Shown one piece after another: positions 13,997 to 29,751 of a DNA stretch of 64,000 nt. The stretch spans positions 103,725 through 167,724 of the forward strand of contig CAJULB010000003.1 in the NCBI GenBank assembly GCA_910587005.1, in the 5' to 3' direction. Every line of letters starts with the position of its first letter. Position 1 is the stretch's first letter. The notes under the pieces were generated by a model that saw nothing but the letters and a program-made list of their open reading frames with translations, had not been told where the DNA came from and did no database searches. The DNA comes from an uncultured Christensenellaceae bacterium (lineage in GTDB: Bacteria; Bacillota; Clostridia; Christensenellales; Borkfalkiaceae). The position numbers and the translations under genes are program-made.

Positions 13997-14025
13997 TTGT
14001 GTTTTGCATAAATTAATGTTAAAAT
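13997..14025 (+). promoter_or_regulatory. Candidate promoter of the antitoxin-like gene
   Basis: TTGTGT (13997-14002), 17-nt spacer ending TGT, TAAAAT (14020-14025). This is an extended -10 geometry. Confidence 0.45.
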
Positions 14026-14049
14026 CAAATAAAAAAAAGTGCTTTTAGT

Positions 14050-14274
14050 ATGCTTATAGATACCAACAAAATCGTTTCCATGACGGAGGCGAATCAAAAC
14101 TTTTCCGTCGTTGCAAAGCAGGCGGAAGAAAACGGCTGCGTGGTTATTTTCAAGAACAATAACCCCAAATATATTCTGCTGGATATTTCCGCCTGCAGAT
14201 TAGAACTGCCCAAGTCGGACGAGCGCATTGAAAAAGCGGCAAAGCGCAAAATTTCTCAGGCGAAGTGGCTTTAA
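14050..14274 (+). CDS. Phd/YefM-family type II antitoxin-like protein (orphan)
   Basis: N-terminal 'VSMTEANQNFSVVAKQAEENGCVVIFKNNNPKYILLDI' fits the Phd/YefM fold pattern. No toxin ORF follows it. Confidence 0.55.
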   Translation: MLIDTNKIVSMTEANQNFSVVAKQAEENGCVVIFKNNNPKYILLDISACRLELPKSDERIEKAAKRKISQAKWL

Positions 14275-14323
14275 ATATGCGCCGGGCACGCATAATTTTA
14301 CAAAGCTTTTTAAAAATTGAACA

Positions 14324-14351
14324 TTGACTTTTTGTGTTTTTGCAGTATAAT
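14324..14351 (+). promoter_or_regulatory. Candidate sigma-A promoter
   Basis: TTGACT (14324-14329), 16-nt spacer, TATAAT (14346-14351), upstream of the kinase-like gene. Confidence 0.5.
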
Positions 14352-14399
14352 AACAGTGTAAGCAAGCGCGTTCAAACGGCGCGAAAACGGGGGCGAAAA

Positions 14400-14996
14400 A
14401 TGAAGAAAATTATAACCATAAGCAGACAGTTCGGCAGCGGCGGCAGGGCGATAGGCAAAGCCGTTGCGGAAAAACTCGGTATTCCGTGCTACGACAAAGA
14501 AATAATAGAACGCGTTGCCGAGAGCAGCGGACTTTCCCGCGATTATATCGAAGCCACGGGCGAATATTCAACTCACCGCACATGGCTTGGCAGAGCGTTA
14601 AGCACAACCCATGCCGCGGGAACGCTTAACAATGAGGATTTAATTTGGGTTGAACAGAGAAAGCTGATACTTAATTTGGCGGAAAAGGGCGCGTGCGTTA
14701 TAGTCGGGCGCTGTGCGGACTATATTTTGAAGAACCGCAGCGACGTGCTTTCCGTGTTTATCCACGCGGACGACAAATCGCGTGCCGAGCGCATAGTAAG
14801 ACTGTACGGCGAACGCGCCGAAAAGCCCGAAAAGCGTTTGAAGGATAAGGACAAACGCAGAAGCGCGTATTATAAATATTACACCGAAACCGAGTGGGGC
14901 GTTGCCTCGAACTATCACATTTCGCTTGACAGCGGCGCGCTCGGCATTGAAAAATGCGTTGAAATTATAGCTTGCGCATACGGCGACAGCGAGTAA
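14400..14996 (+). CDS. Cytidylate kinase-like family protein (AAA/P-loop)
   Basis: 'MKKIITISRQFGSGGRAIGKAVAEKLGIPCYDKEII' is the typical N-terminus of this family. Start trimmed from 14334 to the ATG at 14400, which is preceded by GGGGG. Confidence 0.75.
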   Translation: MKKIITISRQFGSGGRAIGKAVAEKLGIPCYDKEIIERVAESSGLSRDYIEATGEYSTHRTWLGRALSTTHAAGTLNNEDLIWVEQRKLILNLAEKGACVIVGRCADYILKNRSDVLSVFIHADDKSRAERIVRLYGERAEKPEKRLKDKDKRRSAYYKYYTETEWGVASNYHISLDSGALGIEKCVEIIACAYGDSE

Positions 14997-15054
14997 AATT
15001 TTTTAAAAGCGCATTTAAAAATAGAGTATAAACAGTAAAAATTTCATACTTTTA

Positions 15055-15090
15055 AACGGCGGAACCGATAGAAATGTACCGCCGTTTTTT
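15055..15090 (+). terminator. Rho-independent terminator
   Basis: Stem AACGGCGG/CCGCCGTT (15055-15062 / 15079-15086) followed by a T-run. Confidence 0.6.
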
Positions 15091-15360
15091 GTTGTTTTTT
15101 CGCTTATTGAACAAAGCTGTTTTAAATTCGGGGTTTAAACGCGGTAAATCATTCGCTAAAATTCGACAAGGTATTCGACAAAAAGTTCACATAAATCTAC
15201 TAAAACTAACTAAAAGCAACAAAAAAATCATAACAAATACCAATTGTTTACAAGCCGTTAAAACACATATAATATTGCAGTGAAAAAGCGGAAATTTCTT
15301 TTCAATAATATATAATGGCGGAAAGCTTTCCGCCGTAAATTTTCCGCCGGAAATTCACTT

Positions 15361-16494
15361 ATGATAGACCAGAAGTTCGATGAAGTATTTACATACGAAG
15401 CGCTGTATCAGGCGCATATGCGGGGAAGGCTTGCCAAGCGCGATAAAAAGCCACTTGTGCGGTTCGAGAATGCAATGCTCGGCAATCTGTACAACGTGTA
15501 CATAAAACTGCAAAACGGCACCTTCAAGCTTCGCGGTTACAATCATTTTACCGTGTTCGAGCCTAAGCGGCGCGAAATTCAGACTTTGCACTATTCCGAC
15601 AGGGTCGTCCAGCACGTTCTGTGCGACGACGTGCTTGCGCCGTACTTCACAAAGCGCACCGTTATTGATAACGCGGTCTGTCAGAAGGGCAAGGGCAGTC
15701 ACTTCGCCCTCCGCAGGTTCGAGAATATGCTTCACGGCTACATACGCACGCACGGCGCCGACGGCTATATCTTAAAATGCGACATTTTAAAATATTTTCC
15801 GACCATTCCGCACGAAAGGCTGAAAAAAATTTTTTGTGCGGAAATCCGCGACGAGCGCATAAAACAGCTTCTGAATATGATAATCGACAGCTACCATACA
15901 GATATTGTCTATCTGGAACGCTACGGCGTTAAACCGCTCGCCGACGACTCCGGCAAAACCGGCAGGGGCATACCGATAGGCAACCAGACGAGCCAGGTTT
16001 TCGGACTGTTTTATCTGAACGAGGTTGACCGCTTCGTCAAGGAAAAACTGCGCGTAAAAATTTATTCGCGGTATATGGACGACTTTGTGCTTGTTCACGA
16101 AAGTAAAGAATTTTTGCAGAGCGCTTTAAAACAGCTGACCGGGCTTGTGCACAATCTCGGGCTGGAATTTAATTCCAAAACGCAGATTTTCCCGCTTAAA
16201 AACGGGGTAACATACCTCGGTTTCCGCTATCACGTCACGCCGAGCGGAAAAGTTGTAAAAACCGTAAAAAAGAAAACGAAAAGGCGTTTGCGCTGGCGGG
16301 CAAAGCTCTTAAAAAAAGCCGCGATAGAGGGCTTAATCACTCCCGAGCGCGTTCAGCAGTCGCTTGCGGCTTTCCACGGACATCTGAAACATTCAAAGGG
16401 ATACAGACTTGAAAAAGAGATTTTTGCAAAGCTCAGCGCCTACGCGGTGACTGAAAACGTTAAAAACGGCGGGCTTATCAAAAAACGACGCTGA
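15361..16494 (+). CDS. DGR-type reverse transcriptase
   Basis: RT domains with 'GIPIGNQTSQVFGLFYL' (the DGR-typical [IV]GxxxSQ motif) and the catalytic 'YMDDFVL'. 377 aa, with no maturase or endonuclease domain. Confidence 0.9.
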   Translation: MIDQKFDEVFTYEALYQAHMRGRLAKRDKKPLVRFENAMLGNLYNVYIKLQNGTFKLRGYNHFTVFEPKRREIQTLHYSDRVVQHVLCDDVLAPYFTKRTVIDNAVCQKGKGSHFALRRFENMLHGYIRTHGADGYILKCDILKYFPTIPHERLKKIFCAEIRDERIKQLLNMIIDSYHTDIVYLERYGVKPLADDSGKTGRGIPIGNQTSQVFGLFYLNEVDRFVKEKLRVKIYSRYMDDFVLVHESKEFLQSALKQLTGLVHNLGLEFNSKTQIFPLKNGVTYLGFRYHVTPSGKVVKTVKKKTKRRLRWRAKLLKKAAIEGLITPERVQQSLAAFHGHLKHSKGYRLEKEIFAKLSAYAVTENVKNGGLIKKRR

Positions 16495-16608
16495 CGTTAA
16501 TTTACGTGCCGTTATGGCGCGATTAATAAAAAAGCGATTAAAAAAAGCGTTTAATAAAAAAAAGGGGCATAGGGAAAGGAAAAAATAAATGTACAACAAG
16601 GAGAAACC

Positions 16609-17103
16609 ATGCAGGAAGAAGAACAGCTTTCACTGCAAATGCTGGAAAAAGAAATCCAGCAAGAGCTTAACATGCCCGAAGCGGTCGGACTGACCGACCC
16701 GTCCGCGGCAACGCGCAAAGCGTACCGCATAAACGATTTCGATAACCCGCGCGATAAAGAAATGGCGGTGTTCACCCACGCGAAAAAACTTAGCGAATAC
16801 ATTTTTGTAATCACTGAAAAATCCCCGAAAAAATACCGATGGAGCATAATAAGCCGATTGCAGAACGCCTCGGTAGAGCTTGTTGAAAACCTCTACCGCG
16901 CAAATTTCGAGCGTGACGAAGCCGTCCGCGTAAGCTTTCAGAAAGCGGCGGCGGTGTGCATAAAGCTGATTGATTTTTATGCAGAAACCGCGCGCAAAAA
17001 GCAAGCGATAACCGTCAGACAGACGGGCGTGCTTGCAAAACACATAGCCGAAACCGAAAAACTTTTAAACGGCTGGGTGCGCAGCACCAAACGCAAAATG
17101 TAA
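16609..17103 (+). CDS. avd: Avd-like accessory variability determinant (four-helix-bundle protein) with an acidic N-terminal extension of about 50 aa
   Basis: Helical core 'MAVFTHAKKLSEYIFVITEKSPKKYRWSI...' and basic tail 'LLNGWVRSTKRKM' resemble the Bordetella phage Avd / TIGR02436-type proteins. AAGGAG RBS 6 nt upstream of the ATG. Confidence 0.8.
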   Translation: MQEEEQLSLQMLEKEIQQELNMPEAVGLTDPSAATRKAYRINDFDNPRDKEMAVFTHAKKLSEYIFVITEKSPKKYRWSIISRLQNASVELVENLYRANFERDEAVRVSFQKAAAVCIKLIDFYAETARKKQAITVRQTGVLAKHIAETEKLLNGWVRSTKRKM

Positions 17104-17221
17104 ATTTCATCAAACAAAGCTCGGCGCGGCTCAACTGTAAATAAAGCAACTGCAAAACAAGCAAAACAGCAAATTTCACAGTAAAAAAACCGTACCGTAA
17201 CTTTCAGGGCGGAAGCTTAAT

Positions 17222-17343
17222 ATCTTCCTGGCTGCGCTCCGGCAACAATAACAATGCTAACAATGCCAATGCACTGTCAGCCTCAGGTAACAATACCTGG
17301 ACCACTGTTTCGTCCGTCGCTGCTGTCCGCCCCGCGCTTCACT
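17222..17343 (+). repeat. DGR template repeat TR1 (cognate of the VR in this window)
   Basis: 122 bp matching 20496..20617. There are 10 mismatches, all at TR adenines. In the VR frame it reads SWLRSG-NNNNANNANALSASGNNTWT-TVSSVAAVRPALH, rich in AAC/AAT codons. It is not part of any ORF. Confidence 0.92.
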
Positions 17344-17479
17344 CGCTTGCCAAAAAACGCTTGTCAAACACAACTTAATCAAACAAAGCTCGGCGCGGTC
17401 TGACTGTAAATAAAGCAAAACTGCAAATTTCACAGTGAAAAAAACCGCACCGTAACTTTCAGGGCGGAAGTCTGCTTAT

Positions 17480-17601
17480 ACTTCCTGGCTGCGCTCCGGC
17501 AACAATAACAATGCGAACAATGCCAATGCTCTGTCAGCCTCGGGCAATAACAACGGTTCTACTGTTTCGTCCGTCGCTGCTGTCCGCCCCGCGCTTCAAC
17601 T
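17480..17601 (+). repeat. DGR template repeat TR2 (no cognate VR in this window)
   Basis: Same 5' (CTTCCTGGCTGCGCTCCGGC) and 3' (ACTGTTTCGTCCGTCGCTGCTGTCCGCCCCGCGCTTCA) arms as TR1 and the VR. The 20-codon core reads NNNNANNANALSASGNNNGS. It differs from the VR at non-A positions (e.g. GCG vs GCT, GGTTCT vs TGGACC). Confidence 0.8.
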
Positions 17602-17776
17602 CGCTTGCCAAAAAACGATTGTGAAAAGCAATTGTCTGAAAACAGATTGCCCAAACATTAAACGACAAAGCTCGGCAAGGCTTCGGTAAAACTTTTGCTA
17701 ACACAGTTATGACTTACAAGAAATAACTACCCCAACTACCGAAGCCGCGCCGTAACTTTCAGGGCGGAAGCTTAAT

Positions 17777-17898
17777 ATCTTCCTGGCTGCGCTCCGGCAA
17801 CACAAACAACGCGAGCAATGCAAACTTTCTGACAGCCTCGGGCAACAATAACAATACGACTGTTTCGTCCGTCGCTGCTGTCCGCCCCGCGCTTCACT
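17777..17898 (+). repeat. DGR template repeat TR3 (no cognate VR in this window)
   Basis: 122 bp with the same arms. The 20-codon core reads NTNNASNANFLTASGNNNNT. It differs from the VR at several non-A positions. Confidence 0.8.
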
Positions 17899-18176
17899 CG
17901 CTTGCATACAAAAGACAAGGCAAGTTTTCCGGTATTCTGCACGTCTAAGGACTGCCGAACAGAAAAGATTTGAGAATGAAGGGGGCTTCCGTCCTGCCTG
18001 CGCTTAAAAAGCAACGCTTTAAAAGCAAAGGCGAAACCTGCTCAACCTTGACCCAACGGCTTCGGCTGAAACAAACCGTCGCATTTGGTTCATTAGCATG
18101 CTTGCATGCGGTTGAGCATTTTTTTATGCAATTTTTTTGCCGAGATGTTCGGCTGTACTGTTTTTATAGGTGAACG

Positions 18177-18207
18177 CCCCCCGACCGCGCGTTGCGCGGT
18201 CGGGGGG
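18177..18207. other. Perfect 14-bp GC-rich hairpin with a 3-nt loop
   Basis: CCCCCCGACCGCGC-GTT-GCGCGGTCGGGGGG, with all 14 pairs Watson-Crick. No T-run follows. It lies between the TR array and the G-rich repeat. Confidence 0.7.
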
Positions 18208-18230
18208 CTATCTTAATGGGGGGCAGGGGG

Positions 18231-18357
18231 TAAGCCACCCCCCTTAGTCCCCCCGCCGAGGGCAGGGGGTAGGTATTGGACAATCTCCGCCGAGGGCAGG
18301 GGGTAATAATGCGGTAAAAATCCCCCGCCTGGGCGGGGGAATAAAAGGGGGTGGGAT
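18231..18357. repeat. G/C-rich composite repeat, left copy (flanks the DUF559 gene)
   Basis: Modules: TAAGCCACCCCCCTTAGTCCCC, then CCGCCGAGGGCAGGGGGTA (x2), then the TCCCCCGCCTGGGCGGGGG palindrome, then AATAAAAGGGGGTGGGAT. A direct repeat of 18769..18896. Confidence 0.85.
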
Positions 18358-18384
18358 AAATTCCAACAAAATTATTCAGTGTAT

Positions 18385-18729
18385 TTAAATGTTTAAATGG
18401 CTGTAAATATCGGCGCAGACAGATTTAAATTCTGAATTTACTTGTCGGTTAGAGTACCTCAAAACGGTATAACCCAAAGAATTAAGAAAATTATCCCTTT
18501 CAACGTCTTTTTCCGCGTGTCCGTCCCAATAATGTTGAGAACCGTCAAGTTCGATAATCAGTTTTTGTTTCGGACAGCAAAAGTCCACAATGTAATTTTC
18601 TATAACTTTCTGCCGCCAAAACCTTACAGGCAGTTTATTCAGGAATTGAAACCAAAGTTTTTTTTCTTCTTTGGTTTGATTACTACGCAGTACGCGTGAG
18701 TTTTTAAGCATATTTGAGTTTAGCTTCAT
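18385..18729 (-). CDS. DUF559 endonuclease-domain protein (Vsr-like fold)
   Basis: 'LRSNQTKEEKKLWFQFLN...YIVDFCCPKQKLIIELDGSQH...D..RDNFLNSLGYTVLRYSN' is the typical DUF559 pattern. Start trimmed to the ATG at 18729, because the track ORF extends into the G-rich repeat. Confidence 0.75.
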   Translation of the reverse strand: MKLNSNMLKNSRVLRSNQTKEEKKLWFQFLNKLPVRFWRQKVIENYIVDFCCPKQKLIIELDGSQHYWDGHAEKDVERDNFLNSLGYTVLRYSNRQVNSEFKSVCADIYSHLNI

Positions 18730-18768
18730 AGCAAAAGTATAACATTTATTTGTTTTAAATGCAAGTGT

Positions 18769-18896
18769 TAAGCCACCCCCCTTAGTCCCCCCGCCGAGGG
18801 CAGGGGGTAATAATGCGGTAAAAATCCCCCGCCTGGGCGGGAACAACACTACAACAAAATCCCCCGCCTGGGCGGGGGAATAAAAGGGGGTGGGAT
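18769..18896. repeat. G/C-rich composite repeat, right copy
   Basis: Same modules as 18231..18357, but here the CCCCCGCCTGGGCGGG palindrome module is duplicated instead of the CCGCCGAGGGCAGGGGGTA module. Confidence 0.85.
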
Positions 18897-18953
18897 TAGT
18901 GCAATTTTTCTGTTAAAAAGTAACAAAAAGAAATCGCGTAAAATTAAAAAAAA

Positions 18954-18980
18954 GTTCGCCTATTAATATGATAGGCGAAC
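18954..18980. repeat. Left 27-bp inverted repeat (self-palindromic arms), followed by a T7 run
   Basis: GTTCGCCTAT-TAATATG-ATAGGCGAAC. It is the exact reverse complement of 19132..19158, preceded by an A-run and followed by TTTTTTT. Confidence 0.9.
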
Positions 18981-19090
18981 TTTTTTTGTCGAACTTTGTC
19001 GAACAAAATTCACAAAACTACAAAAAAGGGTTAAAAATTGACAAATTATCATAAAATAGTATGGAAATATGAGAAATTTTTTAAAATTTG

Positions 19091-19119
19091 TTGACATAAT
19101 TTACAAATAGTGATAGTAT
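19091..19119 (+). promoter_or_regulatory. Candidate sigma-A promoter of the giant DGR-target gene, located between the two inverted repeats
   Basis: TTGACA (19091-19096), 17-nt spacer, TAGTAT (19114-19119), pointing toward the ATG at 19213. Confidence 0.5.
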
Positions 19120-19131
19120 ACGGGTACAAAA

Positions 19132-19158
19132 GTTCGCCTATCATATTAATAGGCGAAC
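19132..19158. repeat. Right 27-bp inverted repeat
   Basis: GTTCGCCTAT-CATATTA-ATAGGCGAAC. The arms match the left copy and the 7-nt centre is reverse-complemented. Confidence 0.9.
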
Positions 19159-19212
19159 ATTTGGTGCATAAAAAATTTAAAAATTGTTATAAAAAAAGGT
19201 AGGGTTTTTGGT

Positions 19213-22200
19213 ATGACAATACACAAGAAGGGGCAGGCGAAAAATAGCCGTTTTTACGCTATTTTTCACCGAAAAGCGACAAAAATCGGCACTTTATTTG
19301 CAACATTCGCGTTGAGCATTGCGTGCTTGACGGGCACGCTTTTGCCGTCGAAAACATCAAACGCAATGCAGGGCGGTGTTACTTATTCACAAATAGGTGA
19401 AATCTGGAATGACACGCGCAACCGCTTCAACTCGGCAGAGCTTACAAAGCTGTTCAATCAGCTTGCCGGCAGTGACTACACGGCGGCGACAAAACCGAAA
19501 GACGCGCTTGAAAACATCAAAACGCGTTTAAACCTTGACAGCAGTAAAAACGACTCTTACGGCACTAAGGCAATCAACGAAACGGCGGCAAACCATTATA
19601 ACCACCAGCTCACGTCAAACCAAATCCGTTTAAAAAACGGCGGTAAAGACATAGTTGTGGAGTTCGGCGGGCTTGAATGGACGGTAACATATCTGTCCTA
19701 CACAAAAACGGGCGAACCGATTGCCACGCTTTGGCTTGCCAACCCGCTTGGCACCAGCCGTTGGTCGGACTACTGGTACACTAAGTACACTACCACCAAC
19801 ATGACAAAGCAGTCCAACCTGTACGGTCAAAGCTATATCCGTTCGGAAACGTTAAACGCAGGCTCTCGCTATACCACGGTTGCGGGCGCTTCGGCAAGCA
19901 GTGTAAAGACGGATATAACCTCGGACGCAAGCGTTCAGTGGGTGGAAAACCAAAAGAGTTACGACAACCCTTTTGCAAAATTCACTATTAATAATAAGGA
20001 AACGGCTTACGACAACTCCGGCAACAACCCGCAGAAGTTCAAAGGCAGTTTAACCGAATTCCTTGCAACCCCGCGCGAGGTAAGCTGGCAGGAGGACCAA
20101 AGCTGGTCGGTATTCGGCAACCTCGACTATTCGTTGGGTAACGACAGCTGGGACGACCCTTACGTTATCGCCAACGGCGTAAGCGGAAACGGCGCGGTCG
20201 CTTCAACGTTCAACTACTACAATGCAGGCAACGGCGACTTCCGCCGTGCGTACGGCAGAACCACCGACAGCGACGGTGACGGATACGGCGACGGTCAGGT
20301 TTACAACGGCGCAGGCAAGTACAAAATTCAGTACACTGACTGGGCGGACGACTATGTATGGCTTCCTTCCTTAACAGAAACCGGCTACCAGAATAACGCA
20401 GGCACTTCAAAGTCCACGGTAGGCGGTGTTTGGTACCCTTCACAGGCACAGCGTAAATGCTTCGGCGGTACTAACGACGGTTTCAGCAGTTCCGACTCTT
20501 CCTGGCTGCGCTCCGGCGACTCTCTCAATGCTAACAATGCCCATGCACTGTCAGCCTCAGGTTACCCTACCTGGACCACTGTTTCGTCCGTCGCTGCTGT
20601 CCGCCCCGCGCTTCACTTAAATCTCGAATCTGCCGCTTCAGCGGCAAGGGGCATTGACGTACCCGAAGAGATTGAAACCGAAACCGCAAAAACGTACAGC
20701 GGTACGGCAATTGCAAGCCTGCAATATATCGACCTGACGAAAAGCGAAATCAGCAAGGTTGAATTAACAAAAACAGATAACAAAGGCAATCCAACTACGT
20801 CAACATTGACCGCGGGCGAATACTCGGTTACGGACGGCGTGTTTTATGCTACCAACGCGGGCAAATACAAGGTTACGTTCACAATAAAAAATCAAGCAAA
20901 CAAATGGGACGGTAGTACGGTTGACCCCGACACAGGGGTACCGATACACCCGACCGACCCCGACCAGCCCGTAATATACTGGGAAATTCTGGATTTGCCG
21001 GACGGTTACACACCGCAAGGCTCGTCCGACCTGCGATTGCAGGACCAGACGATAGAGTTTGAAATAGCCAAAGCCGAAACCGTTCTGTCCGACGTAAGGA
21101 GGACCGAAACCGCTCAGCTTTATACGGGCGGAGCGTTGCCTCCGCTGACCTGCACCACGTCGGTAAACGGCGCGGTAACTTTGGACAGCGACCAGACGCT
21201 TGACCACGAGGCTACGCTGTACAACTGGACGTTCCTGCCCTCCGGCGCGGACCAGTACAACTATAAACAGAAAACGGGCACCATAACGCTGAACGTTAAA
21301 AAACCGCTTTTGAAAACGCTGACCGCAACCTTTGACGCGGACGCATACAAAAGCGCGCTTGAAGCGGGCACGGCTTTACCGATATATTCCTCAACCCCGA
21401 TTGCAAATATCAAAGCTATAATAAGCAGTTTTGTAACCATTTCGGGTAAAAAAGAGGACGGAAACGCTTACACGTTGCCTATATATTATAATATTGATTA
21501 TAACGCAACCGACAAGCTGAACGGCAAACTGCAATACGGCACAACAAGCGTTGTGGCAAGCTATCAGGACGCGGATATGCTTGCGGAAGGCGTTGAAGCC
21601 GTTAAGTGCGATATCGAGGGGATACCCGTTATCGCCGTTGAAATGACGGGCATTACGCTTAACACCACATACAAAAACGTTTACAACGCGTACGATACGT
21701 TCGATACGACCGATTTGGTGGTTACGGCAACCTTTAACGATAATTCCACAAAGGTTATATCCTCTGCCGATTATACGGTTGAGTATGTTGACAGCACGCG
21801 CAGTAAGCTTTGGGCAAGCGACGGTTACGTTACCGTTAAGTACGTTTACAACGCCGAAAACGGCAAAGAGAATACCGACAGCAAAACCGCGTCGGTTACG
21901 GTAAACAAAATTAACTTTACGGGACTTACGTTTGAAAACAGCACCGTGCCTTACGACGGTGAAAACCACGCTATAACCGTAGGCGGAACGTTCGACCCCG
22001 ACAAAATGACAGCGGTTTACGCATATGCGGGCGCAGTAGGCAGCGGCAGGGTTAACGTGGGCGATTATACCGTTTCGGTTTCGCTTACGTTCACCGATAA
22101 CGAGCTTATAACCAACTATCACCCCGTAACCCTTGCGGACGTTACCCTTAAAATTACCGCGGTTGACTACGACGACCTTACTTCGCTTACGTTCAACAAC

Positions 22201-25200
22201 GTTTCGGCGGAGTTTATAGGGCAGTCGCTTGCTTCGGCTATAACCGCTTCGGGTATGCCTGCGGGCGTTACCGCAACATACACGTTTGCCGACAGCGAGG
22301 GCAACCCCGTTTCCTCGGCGGACGTTATAAACGCGGGTTCTTATACCGTTACCGCTAAGTTTAAGGTTGATAGCAACCACAACGCCATCCCCGACAAAAC
22401 GGCGGTATTGACGGTTACTCCCAAAACCATATTAATAAACAATTTAAGCGGAATTAATTCCGAATACACCTACGCGGGCAGTGCGTGGAGCAACCCCGCG
22501 CCTATATTGAAGGTTACGCTCGGCACGGACGCAACCGCAACAAATCTTGTAGCCGATACCGACTACACCGTAACTTATACGGTTACTGCTGGTACCGCGG
22601 GCAAGGCGGGCGCAACCGTTCTTGTTACCGTTACGGGTAAGGGCAACTACAAGGGTACGGTTACAAAATCGTTCTCAATCAAAAAAGCTACGCTTAATCT
22701 TACCTGGAACGCGGGTTCGCCCCAGTATGACGGAAACCCCCACGGCGCAACGCTTGAAGTAACGGGCGGAGTGCAGGCGGGCGACGAAAGCATTACAACC
22801 TCGGCTTTGGGCGCGCTTATCAGCGTTACCTATACTAAGGACGGAGCTACGGTAAGCGGAGTGCCCTCGGCAATGGGTATTTATACGCCTGCGTTCACCA
22901 ACTTCCCGACGAGCGAGCCGTATTCCAACTACGACTACGTTATAACCAACGTAGGATATAAGTATGAAATAACCGCGGCGGTTATTTCGGGAATTACTTT
23001 CGACGATTTATCCGTTGAATTCAACGGCAAAAACCAGACCATAGAAATCACCGCGTCAAGCGCGCTCCCCGCGGACGTTACCCCCGTATATTACTACAAG
23101 GGCACGTCAAACCTGTTCACGGGCGCAACCAACGCGGGAACGTATGAAGTTACCGTTAAGTTTGTAAGTGCAAGCGGAAACTACGCCGCGCCCGCGGATA
23201 TGGACGCAGTGCTTACAATCACGGCAAAGACGATTGCGGATATAAACGTAAGCAATATCAACAGCGAGTACGTTTATAAGGGCGAAGCGTGGAAGCCTTT
23301 GCCCGCGGTTGCCGTTGCTTTGGGTACGGATACCACGGCTACAACCCTTGCAAAGGACAGAGATTACACCGTTGCATACAGCACGGAGGATTATTCGGCG
23401 GGCACGACGGTTACTGTCACCGTTGAGGGTATAGGCAATTACAGCGGTACCGTTACCGTTGCGTTTGAAATTAAAAAGGCGACTTTGGGCGTTGATTTTA
23501 TCGGCACAGATAAAACTTACGTCTACAACGGCGTTGCGCAGGGCGTTACGGCGGTGTTCACGGGCGTTGCCGAAAGCGATAAGGACACTGTTGTGCCTAC
23601 AATCGTTTACGAAAGTGCGGACGGAACAACTTACCCCGCAAACGCAAATCTGCCCAAAAACGCAGGCAGTTACGTTATTAAAGTAACGCTTGACGCAACC
23701 TTCGCAAACTACGAAAGCTTTGCTGAAATTTCAGAAACGTTCGATATCGAAAAGGCAACCCCTGTAGTTCACGTTGCTTTCGATACCTATAATCCCGATA
23801 CCGACCGCATTTTTGCAGGCGGCGACCTGCCCGCGCTTAAAGTGGTTTCGGCAGTGTTCGGAAGCGTAACCGTAACCGGTACGGTTGACTGGCAGTTAGT
23901 TGACGGCGTTAAACCGCTTTTAACCACAGCGCTTACCGATTACGTTTGGGAATTTGTGCCTGCGGGCGACGACGCGGTTAACTTCAATAACTATACGGGC
24001 AAAATTCAGCTTTACGGCGAAGTGCCCGGTATTGCGGGTATTACCGTAGAGTGGAGGGCGGACGTACCTGCTCCCACGATTTACACGTCTACCTCGCTTG
24101 ACGATTTAAGAAAATATATTATCGTGCGCGCTACGCTGGACAACGGCAAACCCGCGGACGGTGAGATTACCGATTACACCCTTAAAGGCAACTGGGGCGC
24201 TGGCGTTAAGCCTGTTGACAACGTTACCGCAGACTATAACTTAACCGTAATTTCGGCAAACGGCAAATCCGCCGAGCTGGAAAACGTTAAGTATTACAAG
24301 GTTGAGCTTATCGGGCTTGACGTTGTGGCTTCGGACGCAGACGCAGGTATTAAATTAACCTACGCCGCGCTTACGAAGTTCGATAAGTCGAGCATTTCGG
24401 TCATAGCTTTGTATAACGACGGTAGCCGTGTTACTGACATTACCGATTACGAAATCAAATATCCCGTGGAGGGAGAGGACGTTCTTTGGGCGGGCAACAC
24501 TTACGTTACCGTATCCTATAAGGACGGCACCGTTGCAACCGCTAAGGAGTTTATAATTAACGGTTTAACGGTTAATTCGGTTAATTACGACCTTACGGAC
24601 GTTAAGTTTGCGGATACCTCCGTACCCTATGACGGTAACGAACATTCCGTTGTTGTTACGGGCTTGCCAGCAAGCGGTATGAAGCTTGAATACACTTACA
24701 ACGGTACGGCTCTGCCCGACGGCGTTAACGGTATGGTTGACGCGGGCAAGTACACGGTAAGCGTTAAGATTACCTTCACGGACAATAAATATATCGTTAA
24801 CTACAACGCGATTGTTTTAAGCGATATTACCCTCACGGTCGAAAAAATCGACTACGACGGAGTTGGCGATATTACGTTTGACGACGTTGCCGTTGATTAT
24901 AACGGCAGTGCGCGCGCAGACGAAATTGTTGCGGGCAATGTTCCCGCGGAAGTGGTTGCGCTGGGCGTAACTTACAAGTACGAGAAAGTCGGCGCAGACG
25001 GAACTTTGACCGAGTGCTCCGCGGAAGACGTAATTAACGCGGGCGAGTACAAGGTTACCGTTTCGTTCACGGTAGATAAAAACCATAAGGACATTCCCGC
25101 GGTTACCAAAACGCTTACTATTAACAAAATCGACCCCACTATTAACCCTACGGTTATCAGGGCGATTACGGGACAGCTTCTTATCGGCGCACAGCTTATT

Positions 25201-28200
25201 TCCGCCGACGGAGATACCCCCGGTAAGTACGAATGGATTAACCCCGACCATACTTTGGCAAACACCAACAACGAACAGTACAGATTTACCCCGACCGATA
25301 CGGTAAACTATAACGTTGTAACGAAAAATATCGTGTTTGCAGCGGAAACCAAGGTTTTACAGACTATCCGCGTAATATTTACGCAGGGCGATACAAAGCT
25401 TTACACCTCGTACACGATTGAAGACGTTAAAAAGCTTATCGACGAAGGTAAAATAAGCATACAGGTTATAGGCGTATATACAGACGGTTATAACGCTACC
25501 GAGGAAAATATTTCGGCAGGCTACGAGCTGTCCTTGCCCGACGGTGCAACGCATCTTACCGAGGGCGAGTGCCATATCAGCGTCAAGTACCAGCATGTTA
25601 CTAATTCCGACCGCTATCTTACGGTTACAAAAACCGAACTTGAAAGCATTACCCCCGTATTCGACCAGAAGGGCGTGCCTGTATACAGCACTCCCGACGA
25701 TATAGAAACGCTTAAAGCGCTTATCGCGGCGGGCACAGTTTCCCTCACGGTTACGGGTACCAACAACGACGGTAAAACCGCTACCGAGCCTTTCACCTAC
25801 ACAATTTCGGGCGACTGGTCAGGCATGACGGCGGACGGTAAGTTTGCTGTTACCGTTACGGTTGACGGAACAAGCATTTCAAATACCTTCGAAGTTGAAA
25901 TTACGCTTGCGGCAATAGCTTCAATTAAAGCGGAATTTGACCAGAAGGACGCGAAAATCTTCACTTCAACCGATTTGGACGGATTTAAACAGCTGCTTGC
26001 AAACGGCGAAGTTTCGCTTACCGTAAAGGCTTATTACAACAACGGCAAAAACGTTGAAATCAACCTTGCAACGGATACTTCCGACGGTTACACGCTTGCG
26101 CTTTCGACTGCTAATTTCGAAGTAGGCGGACTTGTAAACGTAAGCTATACGGTAAACGGCACGTCGTTCCCCGCATCGTTCGCAGTTGACGTTACGGAAG
26201 TGGAGGTAGTAAGCGTAAGCGCAACCGTTAAAGCCGGCTTCACCGTTTACACCGATACTACACTTGCAAACCTTAAAGACAATATACTTGCAACTGCTTA
26301 CCGCAACGACGGAACAAGCTTCGACGTACCCGCGGCAGACTTCTCGATTTCCCTGCCTGACGGAGAAACCAAGCTTACGGCAGGCGCGCAGAAAGTCGTA
26401 CTCGTCACATATAACGGTTCCGACAAATCTGCCGACTGCGCGGACTTCGGTCTTATTACCGGCGTAACCAAGCACGCAACCCAGATATACTATAACGGCA
26501 AGACCGAATTCACTTATACGGGCAGCGAGCAGGTTATCAACAGCGGAGCAACTACAACCAACACTCAGAGCCCGACGATTAAATATACAATCGGCGGAGC
26601 GGACGCTAAATTTACGGACGTACCCGCAAGCGGCGAGCTTGTTCTTAAAATCGAAGCGGCTGAAACCGACGATTACTTTGCGGCTGAAATTACTCTTACG
26701 ATAACCGTAAGCAAAGCCGACATAGATATGTCTGCGGTTGACTTCGACGACGTTGAATACAAGTATGACGGAACCGATAAGAGCATAACCGTTGATACAA
26801 GCAAGCTTCCTGCCGGCGTTACCGTAAGCGGTTATGAATATCTCGACACTTCGGACGGTACAACGCTTTCAACTTCAAGCGTATCTGCGGCGGGCGTGTA
26901 CAAAGTAACGGTTAAATTCACCGTTACCGATACCGACAACTACAATCTTGTAGCCAACAAAACCGCAACGCTTACAATCAAAAAAGCGGACTACGATATG
27001 ACCGGCGTTACCTTTAACGGCGATACGGTTACATATGACGGCAGCACGCATACCCTTTCGGTTGACGCAAGCAGTCTTCCCTCGGGCGTAACCGTTAAGG
27101 AATACGTTTACACCAACAAGGCGACGGGTGTTAAAGTAACCGATACCGGCGTTGCAAACGCAGGCGAATATACCGTTTCGGTAAGCTTCAACGTAGCTGA
27201 CGCAGTAAACAATAACGCAGTAGCCGATATGACCGCAACGCTTACTATAAACAAGGCGCAGACGGTTATAGATACTTCCGCAATTGTAACCGATTACACC
27301 TACGACGGACTTTCGCACACTGTAAGCGGCGCAACGCTTACCGCAGGCGAAACGGGCGCGGTTATACTGTATTCTTCAAACAGCACGTTTACCGACGTTC
27401 CCTCGGGCGGCAAGCTCACCGTTACCGTGTACGTTAACGACAGCACCAACTATATCGGCGCTTCGGCAACGGTTGAAATAACGGTTAGAAAAGCTTCTCT
27501 TACGATTACAGCGAAGGATAAGACGATATTCTACGGCGACGCACCCGCAAACGACGGAATTAACGAGCCTGTCGGCTTTGTTAACGGCGAAACCGTTGCA
27601 AACCTTAAAGGCAACGCAACATATTCTTACGATTATGCTAAGGGCGGCAACGTTGGCGATTACGTTATTACGGTAAGCGGATTTACTTCTGCAAACTATG
27701 ATATAACCTACGTTACAGGCACCCTTCACGTACTGCAAAAGACTGTTGCGGTTGAATGGACTTCACAGACCTATACGTTCGACGGAAACGGCCACGCTCC
27801 CACGGCTTCGTTTACGGGCATCGGCGGCGACAAAATCGCTATGACCGTAACGGTGGAAGAAAAGGGCGGTTCTGCCGTAACAGGCTTGCCCGTCAACGCT
27901 TCAACCTATGTTGCAACGGCGGCTTCGACCAACGCAAACTATAAGTTTACCGGCGAAACCAAGGAATTTACCATTAATCCCGCGGATATAAGAGTTACGG
28001 GCACGGGCGACCAGTTCTACCTCAGCGGCGGCAGTAAGGACATTACTATTGACGCGGCGGAAAACGGCAAATACGTGTACGTAATACTTCAGGGCAATGT
28101 TACGGGCGCAACGTTCGAGTACAGCCAGGCGCACAACACCTCGTCTGCATATCCCTCTCCCGAGGGGGAACACTCGTTCACAACCTCCAAACCCGTTATA

Positions 28201-29751
28201 ACGGCGGCGGGCAGATACGTTGTAAATTACAGAATAACTGCTCCCAACCATAACGTTTATCTCGGACAGTGGACGGTTGAAGTTACTGACGATACCGAAA
28301 AATCAATAACCATAACCTTCAAAAAACCCTATACCGTTGAGTTCGGCAAGGTGCCCGAAAGCAAGGATGAGCTTGCAAAGCTTGCCGAAGAGCTTTACGA
28401 CGGCGGATATATAACCGTTGACGGACTTGACAGAGAAGAGTTCCTTAAAGTTATGGAACTGCGTTTGAAAGTAGATAATTCCACCGACGTAACGACGGGA
28501 ACAGACGTAGGCAGATACACTCCTTATTTCGAAATCGGCGATGTGTTCGAACCCGTTTACGGCGGTTACGTAATCTTCTACAAGACCGAAAACACGGCGG
28601 AAAACTCCAACATCGGCAAGTTTGAAATTAAGCAGAAAGAGCTCAGCATTACATGGGACAGCATAGGCTTCGTAGCAGACGGTACGTTGCATCTTCCCAC
28701 GGCAACCATAGGCGGATTTAATGACGGTACAACCGCAACGCTTGAACTTGACAGCGCGGCGGGCAAAACGTTCAGAATCGAAGCCGACGGTAAAACAATC
28801 AATGTAACAATCGGCGTACACGGCGACTTAATCAGCGCCGGCGGACATACGCTTGTAGTCAGTGTAGACGACGATAACTATACAATCGACGTTCCTATGA
28901 CCACCGTTTCCATAACGGCGCCCATTAAGCTTGAAGTTAAATGGGAAAATACAAGCTTTGTATACGACGGCGAATCGCATCTTCCCAAAGCTTTGATAAG
29001 CGGTTTTGCTGGCGGTAAAACGTTTGAATTTGCTTTGCAGACAGCGGAAGGCGGCAGCTATTCGTTTGAAAACAACGGCACAACCATTACTTTCACAGTA
29101 ACGGTTGCGGGTTCAGGCAACGTATTTACGGACGTAGGCGTTTATAGAGTTACCGTTTCGTCAAACAGCGCTAACTATGTAATAAGCAATCCCGACACCC
29201 AGATATCGATAACGGCTCCCAGAAAACTTGTTGTAACGTGGAACCAGACGGTATTTGATGAGGACGGAACACAGCACTTCCCCAAAGCTTTGATAAGCGG
29301 ATTTAACGAAAGCGACCCCGTAGCTATCGAACTTAAAGCGGTAAGCGGCGGCGTGTTCACGGTAGAGGTAGACGGTAAAAGCGTAACCTTTACTGTAAAC
29401 GTTGCAGGTATAGGCAATATTCTTAAAGACGCGGGCAACTATAACGTTTCGCTCACGGTTAACAGCAAAGATTACGTTATCGATAACGCTGACGTTACCA
29501 TGACGGTAAGGGCGCTTGTCGGTGGCGAAGTCGAAGGCAAGCTTTCCAAGCCCTGGCTTATAGGTCTGATTATTGCGCTCGGCGTGCTGTTCATAATGAT
29601 TATAATTGCTTATATCGTTGCGGCTAAGCGCAAACCCAAGCTTGTCGGCGCTATCGACGAAGGCGGTTTCAGCGAACCGTATATGCAGTCTTTGGACTAT
29701 ATGGAAGCTGCACCGTCGGACGACGATGACGACGAAGAAGAGGATGAGTAA
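19213..29751 (+). CDS. Giant (3512 aa) cell-surface protein and DGR target
   Basis: Domain order: signal/anchor-like N-terminus, a variable lectin-like head, Ig-like (Big_3-type) and MBG/'YDG' repeats, then a C-terminal TM anchor and acidic tail. N-terminal hydrophobic segment 'IGTLFATFALSIACLTGTLL'. Head module ends 'SSWLRSG...VRPALHLNL'. Dozens of ~80-100-aa repeats carry 'V.YDG..H', 'AG.Y.VTV', 'NY......ATLTI.KA'. One classic MBG unit: 'FYGDAPA...GDYVITVSGFTSANYDITYVTGTLHV'. C-terminus 'PWLIGLIIALGVLFIMIIIAYIVAAKRKPK...DDDDDEEEDE'. No LPXTG motif seen. Confidence 0.9.
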   Translation: MTIHKKGQAKNSRFYAIFHRKATKIGTLFATFALSIACLTGTLLPSKTSNAMQGGVTYSQIGEIWNDTRNRFNSAELTKLFNQLAGSDYTAATKPKDALENIKTRLNLDSSKNDSYGTKAINETAANHYNHQLTSNQIRLKNGGKDIVVEFGGLEWTVTYLSYTKTGEPIATLWLANPLGTSRWSDYWYTKYTTTNMTKQSNLYGQSYIRSETLNAGSRYTTVAGASASSVKTDITSDASVQWVENQKSYDNPFAKFTINNKETAYDNSGNNPQKFKGSLTEFLATPREVSWQEDQSWSVFGNLDYSLGNDSWDDPYVIANGVSGNGAVASTFNYYNAGNGDFRRAYGRTTDSDGDGYGDGQVYNGAGKYKIQYTDWADDYVWLPSLTETGYQNNAGTSKSTVGGVWYPSQAQRKCFGGTNDGFSSSDSSWLRSGDSLNANNAHALSASGYPTWTTVSSVAAVRPALHLNLESAASAARGIDVPEEIETETAKTYSGTAIASLQYIDLTKSEISKVELTKTDNKGNPTTSTLTAGEYSVTDGVFYATNAGKYKVTFTIKNQANKWDGSTVDPDTGVPIHPTDPDQPVIYWEILDLPDGYTPQGSSDLRLQDQTIEFEIAKAETVLSDVRRTETAQLYTGGALPPLTCTTSVNGAVTLDSDQTLDHEATLYNWTFLPSGADQYNYKQKTGTITLNVKKPLLKTLTATFDADAYKSALEAGTALPIYSSTPIANIKAIISSFVTISGKKEDGNAYTLPIYYNIDYNATDKLNGKLQYGTTSVVASYQDADMLAEGVEAVKCDIEGIPVIAVEMTGITLNTTYKNVYNAYDTFDTTDLVVTATFNDNSTKVISSADYTVEYVDSTRSKLWASDGYVTVKYVYNAENGKENTDSKTASVTVNKINFTGLTFENSTVPYDGENHAITVGGTFDPDKMTAVYAYAGAVGSGRVNVGDYTVSVSLTFTDNELITNYHPVTLADVTLKITAVDYDDLTSLTFNNVSAEFIGQSLASAITASGMPAGVTATYTFADSEGNPVSSADVINAGSYTVTAKFKVDSNHNAIPDKTAVLTVTPKTILINNLSGINSEYTYAGSAWSNPAPILKVTLGTDATATNLVADTDYTVTYTVTAGTAGKAGATVLVTVTGKGNYKGTVTKSFSIKKATLNLTWNAGSPQYDGNPHGATLEVTGGVQAGDESITTSALGALISVTYTKDGATVSGVPSAMGIYTPAFTNFPTSEPYSNYDYVITNVGYKYEITAAVISGITFDDLSVEFNGKNQTIEITASSALPADVTPVYYYKGTSNLFTGATNAGTYEVTVKFVSASGNYAAPADMDAVLTITAKTIADINVSNINSEYVYKGEAWKPLPAVAVALGTDTTATTLAKDRDYTVAYSTEDYSAGTTVTVTVEGIGNYSGTVTVAFEIKKATLGVDFIGTDKTYVYNGVAQGVTAVFTGVAESDKDTVVPTIVYESADGTTYPANANLPKNAGSYVIKVTLDATFANYESFAEISETFDIEKATPVVHVAFDTYNPDTDRIFAGGDLPALKVVSAVFGSVTVTGTVDWQLVDGVKPLLTTALTDYVWEFVPAGDDAVNFNNYTGKIQLYGEVPGIAGITVEWRADVPAPTIYTSTSLDDLRKYIIVRATLDNGKPADGEITDYTLKGNWGAGVKPVDNVTADYNLTVISANGKSAELENVKYYKVELIGLDVVASDADAGIKLTYAALTKFDKSSISVIALYNDGSRVTDITDYEIKYPVEGEDVLWAGNTYVTVSYKDGTVATAKEFIINGLTVNSVNYDLTDVKFADTSVPYDGNEHSVVVTGLPASGMKLEYTYNGTALPDGVNGMVDAGKYTVSVKITFTDNKYIVNYNAIVLSDITLTVEKIDYDGVGDITFDDVAVDYNGSARADEIVAGNVPAEVVALGVTYKYEKVGADGTLTECSAEDVINAGEYKVTVSFTVDKNHKDIPAVTKTLTINKIDPTINPTVIRAITGQLLIGAQLISADGDTPGKYEWINPDHTLANTNNEQYRFTPTDTVNYNVVTKNIVFAAETKVLQTIRVIFTQGDTKLYTSYTIEDVKKLIDEGKISIQVIGVYTDGYNATEENISAGYELSLPDGATHLTEGECHISVKYQHVTNSDRYLTVTKTELESITPVFDQKGVPVYSTPDDIETLKALIAAGTVSLTVTGTNNDGKTATEPFTYTISGDWSGMTADGKFAVTVTVDGTSISNTFEVEITLAAIASIKAEFDQKDAKIFTSTDLDGFKQLLANGEVSLTVKAYYNNGKNVEINLATDTSDGYTLALSTANFEVGGLVNVSYTVNGTSFPASFAVDVTEVEVVSVSATVKAGFTVYTDTTLANLKDNILATAYRNDGTSFDVPAADFSISLPDGETKLTAGAQKVVLVTYNGSDKSADCADFGLITGVTKHATQIYYNGKTEFTYTGSEQVINSGATTTNTQSPTIKYTIGGADAKFTDVPASGELVLKIEAAETDDYFAAEITLTITVSKADIDMSAVDFDDVEYKYDGTDKSITVDTSKLPAGVTVSGYEYLDTSDGTTLSTSSVSAAGVYKVTVKFTVTDTDNYNLVANKTATLTIKKADYDMTGVTFNGDTVTYDGSTHTLSVDASSLPSGVTVKEYVYTNKATGVKVTDTGVANAGEYTVSVSFNVADAVNNNAVADMTATLTINKAQTVIDTSAIVTDYTYDGLSHTVSGATLTAGETGAVILYSSNSTFTDVPSGGKLTVTVYVNDSTNYIGASATVEITVRKASLTITAKDKTIFYGDAPANDGINEPVGFVNGETVANLKGNATYSYDYAKGGNVGDYVITVSGFTSANYDITYVTGTLHVLQKTVAVEWTSQTYTFDGNGHAPTASFTGIGGDKIAMTVTVEEKGGSAVTGLPVNASTYVATAASTNANYKFTGETKEFTINPADIRVTGTGDQFYLSGGSKDITIDAAENGKYVYVILQGNVTGATFEYSQAHNTSSAYPSPEGEHSFTTSKPVITAAGRYVVNYRITAPNHNVYLGQWTVEVTDDTEKSITITFKKPYTVEFGKVPESKDELAKLAEELYDGGYITVDGLDREEFLKVMELRLKVDNSTDVTTGTDVGRYTPYFEIGDVFEPVYGGYVIFYKTENTAENSNIGKFEIKQKELSITWDSIGFVADGTLHLPTATIGGFNDGTTATLELDSAAGKTFRIEADGKTINVTIGVHGDLISAGGHTLVVSVDDDNYTIDVPMTTVSITAPIKLEVKWENTSFVYDGESHLPKALISGFAGGKTFEFALQTAEGGSYSFENNGTTITFTVTVAGSGNVFTDVGVYRVTVSSNSANYVISNPDTQISITAPRKLVVTWNQTVFDEDGTQHFPKALISGFNESDPVAIELKAVSGGVFTVEVDGKSVTFTVNVAGIGNILKDAGNYNVSLTVNSKDYVIDNADVTMTVRALVGGEVEGKLSKPWLIGLIIALGVLFIMIIIAYIVAAKRKPKLVGAIDEGGFSEPYMQSLDYMEAAPSDDDDDEEEDE
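20496..20617 (+). repeat. DGR variable repeat (VR), codons ~428-469 of the giant ORF
   Basis: Matches TR1 except at positions where TR1 has A. It encodes SWLRSG-DSLNANNAHALSASGYPTWT-TVSSVAAVRPALH. Confidence 0.92.
20631..20646 (+). other. Short GC hairpin 14 nt downstream of the VR (candidate DGR target-recognition hairpin/cruciform)
   Basis: TGCCGC-TTCA-GCGGCA: a 6-bp stem with a 4-nt loop, inside the coding sequence immediately after TR/VR homology ends. Confidence 0.5.

Follow-up and report, generated by a model that had tools for sequence, protein, structure and literature searches.

A chromosomal diversity-generating retroelement of a gut Clostridia bacterium with three tandem templates that probably alternate at a single variable repeat

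Diversity-generating retroelements (DGRs) are understood as systems in which one template repeat (TR) randomises only the adenine-encoded positions of a variable repeat (VR), the rest of the VR being fixed by the template. The DGR described here lies within a 64-kb stretch of contig CAJULB010000003.1 (the window) from an uncultured Christensenellaceae bacterium and comprises a reverse transcriptase (RT) gene, an accessory gene of the Avd type, three tandem TRs and one VR inside the gene for a 3512-aa surface protein. Its identity as a DGR alone is of a well-known kind; what is new, as read from the sequences compared here, is an array of alternative templates used on one VR. Natural variation among related loci makes it highly probable that this cellular DGR switches the scaffold of its single VR among a library of TRs, followed by mutagenesis at adenines.

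The DGR of Bordetella phage BPP-1 (brt, avd, TR and the VR in mtd) resembles the window locus in several respects: its RT is the closest of solved structure, with an IGxxxSQ motif and an Avd partner, its TR and VR differ at adenines only, and its template is rich in AAY codons. Both loci also show a hairpin after the GC-rich 3' end of the VR and, downstream of the TR, an RNA element complementary to the end of the TR. The BPP-1 element, however, is phage-borne, with one TR and a VR at the C-terminus of a tail-fibre protein, whereas the window element lies on a chromosome, combines one VR with three TRs (as many as 11 in relatives), follows the order RT-Avd-TRs-target, and places its VR in the N-terminal domain of a 3512-aa protein. 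Chromosomal or host-borne DGRs that diversify a C-lectin-type ligand-binding domain of a cellular surface protein include those of Treponema denticola TvpA, Legionella LdtA and Bacteroides pilus-tip proteins (PMC4891356; bioRxiv 10.1101/2024.11.15.621889). In those systems one TR serves one or many VRs; the window inverts this, with many TRs for one VR. Tentaclins, which are phage DGR targets, carry a DUF6273 C-lectin domain at the N-terminus and Ig domains after it (PMC10743442). The window target has the same topology, but it is cellular, about six times longer, and carries a C-terminal transmembrane (TM) helix and MBG repeats, and its DUF6273 match is below the gathering score.

Cassettes with more than one TR beside one RT are present in published surveys, where, in contrast to the window, each TR is taken to have its own VRs or the extra TRs are removed as redundant. 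One study mentions cassettes with multiple TRs 'and corresponding VRs' (PMC6642488), another removed multi-TR cases from its cassette analysis (PMC11661182), and two large surveys do not discuss multiple TRs (PMC5758913, PMC8144416). None of these surveys reports that templates alternate at one VR, nor chimeric VRs, arrays with 6-11 units or a single shared 3' element. Our literature searches on multi-TR DGRs, incomplete in coverage, returned passing mentions only, and found no single-VR template alternation, chimeric VRs or arrays of such size.

The window RT (377 aa; 15361..16494, plus strand) matches Pfam RVT_1 and carries an IGNQTSQ motif (15976-15996, RT aa 206-212) and a YMDD motif (16072-16083). 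RTs of the DGR clade have the motif [I/L/V]GxxxSQ in place of the group II QGxxxSP. The closest solved structure was PDB chain 8ub7_A (E = 2.3e-33), with both halves aligned and IGNQTSQ opposite IGSLTSQ, and tblastn of the aligned 8ub7 sequence identified this chain as Brt of BPP-1, the prototype DGR RT. Group II intron and retron RTs of solved structure gave E = 7e-7 or worse, and no NCBIfam RT model reached its cutoff with the window RT. By motif and closest solved relative, the window RT is thus classed as DGR-type, as an earlier note made from the sequence alone had claimed. The same note called the next open reading frame (ORF) Avd-like; this 164-aa protein (16609..17103, plus strand) scores 44.4 bits with Pfam bAvd, above the gathering score of 40, and matches NCBIfam DivGenRetAVD at E = 1.9e-12 (47 bits, below the cutoff of 80). 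The claimed order RT, Avd, TR, target was also borne out, and the series kinase-like gene, RT, Avd, repeats and giant gene is syntenic in several related genomes. No phage functions were found among the proteins of the window, which include SMC, FtsY, Leloir-pathway enzymes, many glycoside hydrolases, sugar ABC transporters and products of rhamnose genes, and the TR core occurred in 0 of 2.9 million contigs of a viral collection. These results agree with the suggestion that the DGR is cellular and has no phage genes nearby, and they support a chromosomal DGR of a gut Clostridia bacterium that acts on a surface protein.

TR1 (17223..17343, plus strand; 'T-W-T' scaffold) is the cognate template of the window VR (20497..20617, plus strand), which encodes aa 429-468 of the 3512-aa ORF, at the C-terminal edge of the N-terminal domain. 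An earlier alignment by eye had claimed a gap-free match with ten mismatches, each at a template adenine. The exact alignment was run and is gap-free over the 121 nt of 17223-17343 and 20497-20617. Nine mismatches (17244, 17247, 17248, 17250, 17251, 17268, 17289, 17292 and 17293) were retained and TR1 has A at 9/9 of them, while none of its C, G or T positions differs from the VR (hypergeometric P = 1.8e-7, with 25 A among 121 nt). The tenth, at 17222 (A>C), is doubtful: it sits at the homology boundary and is best placed outside the repeat, with TR1 starting at 17223, because the positions further outward include non-A mismatches (17221 (T/A), 17218 and 17216). In frame, TR1 reads LRSG NNNNANNANALSASGNNTWTTV and the gene at the VR reads LRSG DSLNANNAHALSASGYPTWTTV; these readings and the nine AAY codons of TR1 had been given correctly. 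The VR has a GC-rich 3' end (GTCCGCCCCGCGCTTCAC) and, 14 nt after it, a GC-rich hairpin with a 6-bp stem and 4-nt loop (TGCCGC-TTCA-GCGGCA; 20631..20646, plus strand) nested in GCCCC/GGGGC. The hairpin is kept in another lineage with a different loop (GCCGC-CTTG-GCGGC). By the presence of these features, the VR 3' end would fit the DGR target-recognition layout of a GC-rich initiation of mutagenic homing (IMH) site and downstream hairpin.

A repeat search of the window yielded four unit copies, starting at 17187, 17444, 17742 and 20461, and a shared 20-nt 5' end and 38-nt 3' end were each present in exactly 4 copies against 0 expected by chance. Three of these copies are tandem TRs and one is the VR. 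TR2 (17481..17598, plus strand) has an 'N-G-S' scaffold and ends identical to those of TR1 and the VR; TR3 (17778..17898, plus strand) has an 'A-S-n-A-n-F-L-T ... nnnn-T-T' scaffold and shares its ends with TR1, TR2 and the VR. Both were described as equal in length to TR1, and both keep the VR frame open, as do all TR copies across the loci (at least 29, with lengths of 111 or 114 nt). In the reading frame of the VR, the templates give NNNNANNANALSASGNNTWTTV (TR1), NNNNANNANALSASGNNNGSTV (TR2) and NTNNASNANFLTASGNNNNTTV (TR3), and they differ mostly at adenine-free codons (TW-T, NGS, FL...TT), i.e. at residues that a DGR cannot vary. Because TR1-TR3 share the 20-nt and 38-nt ends of the VR, any of them could rewrite the same VR. 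TR2 and TR3 each differ from the window VR at 10-12 non-adenine positions, and therefore neither is its source. The interpretation centred on TR1 in the earlier note was consequently sound as to the DGR elements, all of which were supported, but incomplete, since TR1 was taken as the sole template and the two TRs immediately downstream were not addressed.

The 26-nt core shared by the TRs and the VR was used as the query in a scan of one genome per species and in a metagenome scan. Among the species representatives, three mouse-gut metagenome-assembled genomes (MAGs) carried arrays of 3, 4 and 6 TRs and one further core copy each, which was located in the giant-gene orthologue and was followed by the same 3' flank. 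A 1.18-Mb contig (L008) carried three TRs and one VR, with no other core match along the contig. Exactly one VR was present in every assembly checked, whether the array had 3, 4, 6 or 11 TRs.

To identify the source of each VR, its A and non-A mismatches were counted against every TR of the same genome. The source was TR1 in the window, TR4 of 6 in MGBC136074, TR2 of 3 in MGBC155142 and TR3 of 4 in MGBC140398, and in these four genomes the best TR had 0-1 non-A mismatches while the other TRs had about 8-15. By locus, the VR of L006 was assigned to TR2, that of L005 to TR4 of 6 and that of L003 to TR3 of 4. TR1 was the source, with the counts given as A/non-A, in the window (9/0; next-best TR 10 non-A), L010 (13/0; next-best 8) and L012 (12/0; next-best 9), and in L028, L031 and L032 with 1-2 non-A mismatches. 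TR2 was the source in L013 (18/0), and the VR of L027 matched the canonical TR2 of its sister L026 at 17/0. TR3 was the source in L025 (15/0; next-best 7 non-A), L029 (15/0) and L026 (16/0; next-best 13 non-A), and the VR of L011 came from a TR3-type template (15/0 against TR3 of L012). Grouped by template type, TR2-type templates were the source in L006, L003, L013 and L027, and TR3-type templates in L014, P0065, L011, L025 and L026. L025 to L032 encode an identical RT protein (P0083) and their contigs hold both array and VR; strains with identical RT carried many distinct VRs. L010 and L011, with target flanks 97% identical, nonetheless carry VRs from TR1-type and TR3-type templates.

In the VR of L008, the 5' part matched TR2 and the 3' part TR3; the chimeric path had 0 non-A mismatches, against at least 4 for any single TR. 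Two templates so appear to have contributed to this VR, by partial replacement, by template switching or as a population consensus of two VR types. Protein variants, collected by a search with the N-terminal 620 aa of the target and a listing of 90% clusters, include all three scaffolds within one 90% cluster family, and the target lineage MKVYKK... includes TW-type (P0002, P0077), GS-type (P0070) and FL-type (P0003, P0072, P0081) VRs. P0065 has a window-type N-terminus, and its VR, Y-T-S-S-A-S-I-A-I-F-L-T, matches the window-specific TR3, N-T-N-N-A-S-N-A-N-F-L-T.

Pooled over 13 TR/VR pairs at the DNA level, 185/321 A sites were changed compared to 10/1122 non-A sites (odds ratio 151, P = 8e-130), the changes at A being A>G (91), A>T (49) and A>C (45). 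VR polymorphism at the adenine columns of TR1 had been proposed as a population test, and one comparison bears on it. L009, which is 99% identical to the window and has the same TRs, carries a TR1-derived VR that differs from the window VR at 13 columns, 11/13 of them TR1 adenines.

Close homologues of the RT numbered 618 at E <= 1e-30, mostly in MAGs of gut Clostridia, and the size of the array varied among three more distant ones that were sampled. L036 (RT 73% identical) and L039 (RT 62%) have one TR and one VR each, while L037 and L038 (RT 67% identical to that of the window, and the same protein in both) have 11 tandem units before a single VR. The L037 VR derives from unit 6 (16 A changes, 0 others; next-best unit 13 non-A) and the L038 VR from unit 1 (15 A changes, 0 others; next-best unit 11 non-A). 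On these counts the pair is independent support for template alternation, with far more divergent scaffolds. When the target protein of the 11-unit lineage served as query, no match was found at E <= 1e-60, and that lineage is represented here by two strains.

An alternative source of scaffold switching is homologous recombination or gene conversion independent of the RT. In Neisseria pilS/pilE and Borrelia vls, silent cassettes with common ends feed one expressed site and chimeras occur, by DNA recombination with faithful copying. The window is alike in outline, but the transfer here would run through RNA and an error-prone RT, with random changes at adenines. Under a pilS/pilE-like scheme, the DGR would add only adenine mutations, from whichever TR had become cognate. 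The TRs and the VR are indeed direct repeats with exact 20-nt and 38-nt ends, the arrays show recombination-like changes (hybrid TR2, duplicated TR3, a single-unit array), and in some contigs (L007, P0079) the VR 5' flank runs on into a TR 3' flank. Every VR, however, including both halves of the chimera, is heavily mutagenised at A relative to its source TR (11-20 changes), and therefore RT-mediated copying from that TR occurred in any case. No VR retained an unmutated TR segment, save in contigs that also switch to TR flanks, as assembly chimeras would be expected to do. DGRs are moreover known to replace a VR only in part with cDNA, as reportedly seen for BPP-1 in marker-transfer work. Switching by recombination independent of the RT is considered improbable.

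We regard as decidedly improbable the conventional arrangement in which TR1 alone is active and TR2 and TR3 are inert duplicates or serve VRs outside the 64-kb window. In its favour, the window VR matches TR1 only and the remainder of the genome is out of view, and multi-TR cassettes have been described in published surveys as TRs each with their own VRs (PMC6642488). The 26-nt core scans nevertheless gave one VR per genome in the three MAGs and on the 1.18-Mb contig, and the orthologous VR carries TR1-, TR2- or TR3-derived sequence where arrays are near-identical or the RT is identical. P0065 joins a window-type target to a VR from the window-type TR3, and exact ends with an open frame in all TRs would be unexpected of inert copies. 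That the differing template use is an artefact of mis-joined TR/VR or mixed-strain reads is very hard to credit, for although the locus is often broken or mis-joined in assemblies (L007; P0079; L011, ending in an Illumina adapter) and the hybrid TR2 of some MAGs may be an assembly error, a mis-join would bring in unmutated TR whereas the VRs carry 9-20 A-specific changes and 0-2 others, the VRs are bordered by the proper coding sequence on contigs as long as 269 kb and 1.18 Mb, the result recurs across independent samples, assemblers and lineages including the 11-unit arrays, and even a chimeric consensus needs both parental VR types at the locus.

Alternation among templates within the DGR remains the preferred explanation, and several points weigh against it. 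The footprint in the window's own VR was left by TR1 only, and the window strain is seen only as the 64-kb stretch, which is what its single-VR count covers; the counts for the three MAGs likewise cover incomplete genomes. A few non-A changes do occur (the 10/1122 above). The evidence all comes from assembled contigs, and many of these are metagenomic and prone to errors from repeats and mixed populations. Several end within the array, and some are hybrids (L007, P0079). Disruptions affect the VRs of three window-type targets (L009, L014, P0065). At the RNA level, the pairing of the TR 3' end with the post-array element described below is invariant, so that complementarity and conservation are seen but no covariation, because both partners are invariant, and the fold z-score of that element by itself is unremarkable (+0.48).

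The disrupted VRs are of different kinds. The VR of L009 (3248-3358) has a TGG>TAG change, which is a non-A change giving a stop, that of L014 (1378-1487) a 1-nt deletion at an adenine, and that of P0065 a frameshift; in all three the downstream 3000-aa frame is intact. These could be consensus errors in a mixed population, or real, reversible OFF states mended by later homing. In the short metagenome contigs L007 (P0004, P0080) and P0079, the target 5' flank is joined to unmutated TR3 or half-mutated TR2, followed by the TR 3' flank and intergenic region. These contigs were considered as signs of TR-VR recombination or excised circles but set aside as evidence, since de Bruijn assembly would be expected to produce such joins by way of the shared 20-nt block or the central block. 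Assembly mis-joins through the shared repeat are the most likely account, with products of TR-VR recombination less likely. L011 ends at 1580-1623 in an Illumina adapter (AGATCGGAAGAGCGTCGTGTAGGGAAAGAGTGT), which creates a false C-terminus of P0003.

Array content also varied among strains with the same RT. Some arrays (L025, L027, L028, L029, L033) contain a hybrid TR2 with a TR3-like 3' part, L032 has four TRs with TR3 duplicated, and L013 has a single unit with a TR2 body and TR3 3' flank. These differences reflect either recombination between units or assembly collapse. Real deletion or conversion was considered for the single-unit array of L013 and for the hybrid TR2, but neither is distinguishable from assembly collapse.

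The RNA features of the array suggest how several templates might share one priming site. In all arrays each TR has its own upstream module, consisting of AAAGCTCGGC, a stem-loop with variable apex and CCGTAACTTT(T/C)AGGGCGGA(A/G)G. The three modules of the window, all on the plus strand, have a common fold architecture and different inner stems. Module 1 (17112..17222; stem-loop with variable apex, then CCGTAACTTTCAGGGCGGAAG) has GCGG/CCGU (z = -0.5), module 2 (17380..17479) has GCGGU/ACCGC (fold z = -2.75), and module 3 (17664..17777) has GGCUUCGGU/ACCGAAGCC (fold z = -2.87). An Rfam scan of 14000-21500 at a permissive threshold gave chance-level matches only, and therefore the TR modules are covered by no known RNA family. 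A short CTCGCTTGC motif is present after each TR.

In BPP-1, work of the Ghosh laboratory is said to have found that a spacer region 3' of the TR is needed for priming. The window has a spacer-like (Sp-like) element after the array (17899..18037, plus strand), with a hairpin at 17900-17925, GAGAATGAAGGGGGC at 17972-17986 and AAGGCGAAACC at 18028-18038. Four genomes conserve this element, whose sequence is complementary to the invariant 3' end common to all TRs. In the RNAalifold consensus of the four genomes, GAG..TGAAGGGGGC and AGC.A(A/T)GG.CGAAAC pair with the TR 3' end, GCCCC..CTTCA.CTC and GTTTCG.CCGT.GCT; both the hairpin between the two pairing segments and the terminator-like stem that follows show compensatory changes. 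A separate priming element for each TR was considered and dropped, as 9/9 arrays have a single GAGAATGAAGGGGGC motif, located past the last TR. By analogy with BPP-1, we propose that the single Sp-like element may serve all TRs through their common 3' end. The conserved stem and U-run at 18038..18125 (plus strand; compensatory stem changes in alignment columns 190-270; fold z = -2.3) is likely the terminator of the RT-Avd-TR-array transcript.

The observed cassette anatomy, A-only pattern, single VR per assembly, differing TR use in sister strains and chimeric VR can be combined into a mechanism. The RT, Avd, three TR units and one Sp-like element would be transcribed as one RNA ending at the conserved terminator. 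The post-array element would prime all TRs by pairing with their common 3' end, and the RT-Avd complex would copy a TR into cDNA, misincorporating opposite template adenines. The cDNA would then replace the sole VR, codons 429-468 of the 3512-aa surface protein, in a variable DUF6273/C-lectin-like domain presumed to lie at the distal tip of a protein anchored by its C-terminus. A scaffold swap would thereby alter residues beyond the reach of adenine mutagenesis, and mutagenesis would then randomise the Asn codons.

The target gene (19213..29751, plus strand; 3512 aa) encodes a hydrophobic N-terminal signal/TM segment, a N-terminal domain of about 430 aa that is DUF6273-like and contains the VR, a long run of MBG/Ig-like repeats, and a C-terminal TM helix with an acidic tail. 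The N-terminal signal/TM segment, C-terminal TM anchor and MBG repeats accord with the claim that the target is a surface protein, and from the C-terminal anchoring it follows that the variable domain would be the membrane-distal tip. Pfam DUF6273 matches aa 377-470 at E = 4.5e-4, just below the gathering score, and many target homologues carry PF19789. An AlphaFold model of aa 41-486 (pLDDT 81.7, pTM 0.86) places the VR on beta-strands with pLDDT of about 90. Foldseek against BFVD returned phage DUF6273 proteins with a probability of 0.97-1.0 but TM-scores of only 0.14-0.29, and against PDB there was no significant match (best 9qa6, E = 0.011; C-lectins E > 1). The C-lectin assignment consequently rests on DUF6273 and the literature, in which DUF6273 is judged C-lectin-like and 5'-proximal VRs are called rare (PMC10743442). 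A promoter-like site of the target gene (TTGACA-17-TAGTAT with an upstream TG; 19091..19119, plus strand) is bracketed by two copies of a 35-nt palindrome (AAAAGTTCGCCTAT..ATAGGCGAACTTTT) at 18950-18984 and 19128-19162, which look like operator sites or bidirectional terminators. The related locus L004 has a weak match to the palindrome.

If confirmed, a template array would lift the limit set by a single template, as scaffold residues, and in relatives even loop length, would be swapped and then hypermutated, making the repertoire the union of several libraries of about 15^9 to 15^10 variants each. Pipelines that detect DGRs would then have to be adapted, the array would offer a natural design for multi-template DGR engineering, and the question would arise of how one of several TRs on the same RNA is chosen for priming. 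The comparison also shows that abundant gut Clostridia differ, from one nearly identical strain to the next, at the tip of a giant adhesin-like protein.

In the 11-unit arrays, some noncoding units (L037 9971-10375 and L038 9595-10337; units 6 and 8-10) are adenine-depleted copies of other units. Unit 8 of L037 is TR4 with 9 A changes and 0 others, while the corresponding slot of L038 derives from TR11; unit 10 derives from TR2. The depleted units recur at a shorter period, 151 nt, and end in a VR-like GCGCTTCA; L037 and L038, whose RT is identical, differ in them. Array slots thus seem to have been rewritten by mutagenic homing. A more speculative reading, which we consider rather unlikely, is that TR arrays form a programmable scaffold library with memory, in which the Sp-like element would select a TR by 3'-end pairing and overwritten slots would store past variants. 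Stored variants, with few adenines left, would be written back to the VR with little change. If true, this would unite cassette switching, hypermutation and a variant archive in one retroelement.

An insertion of about 770 bp (18130-18902), absent from all related loci, separates the cassette from the target gene. It contains a minus-strand ORF (18385-18849) for a DUF559 protein (Vsr-like endonuclease fold) and has GC-rich, hairpin-containing repeats on either side (18223-18337 and 18761-18876). L035, of a distant lineage, has a DUF559 ORF and similar GC-rich repeats in the same relative position (8915-9292), which its sister L036 lacks. This distribution suggests a small mobile element. In relatives, a PhdYeFM antitoxin-like ORF is preceded by a gene for a 640-aa ABC ATPase; the window has only short ORFs with no family match there (13319-13894, minus strand, and 14050-14274), as do L016 to L019, and the ABC ATPase gene appears to have decayed in the window lineage. 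Identity is also mosaic. Compared to window 14396-22150, L008 is 78-79% identical in the RT-Avd-TR cassette and 96% identical in the target 5' region, and against MGBC155142 (L001/L006) a fall from 98% to 81% identity occurs inside the target gene, close to the VR. This gene seems to have been exchanged between lineages independently of the cassette.

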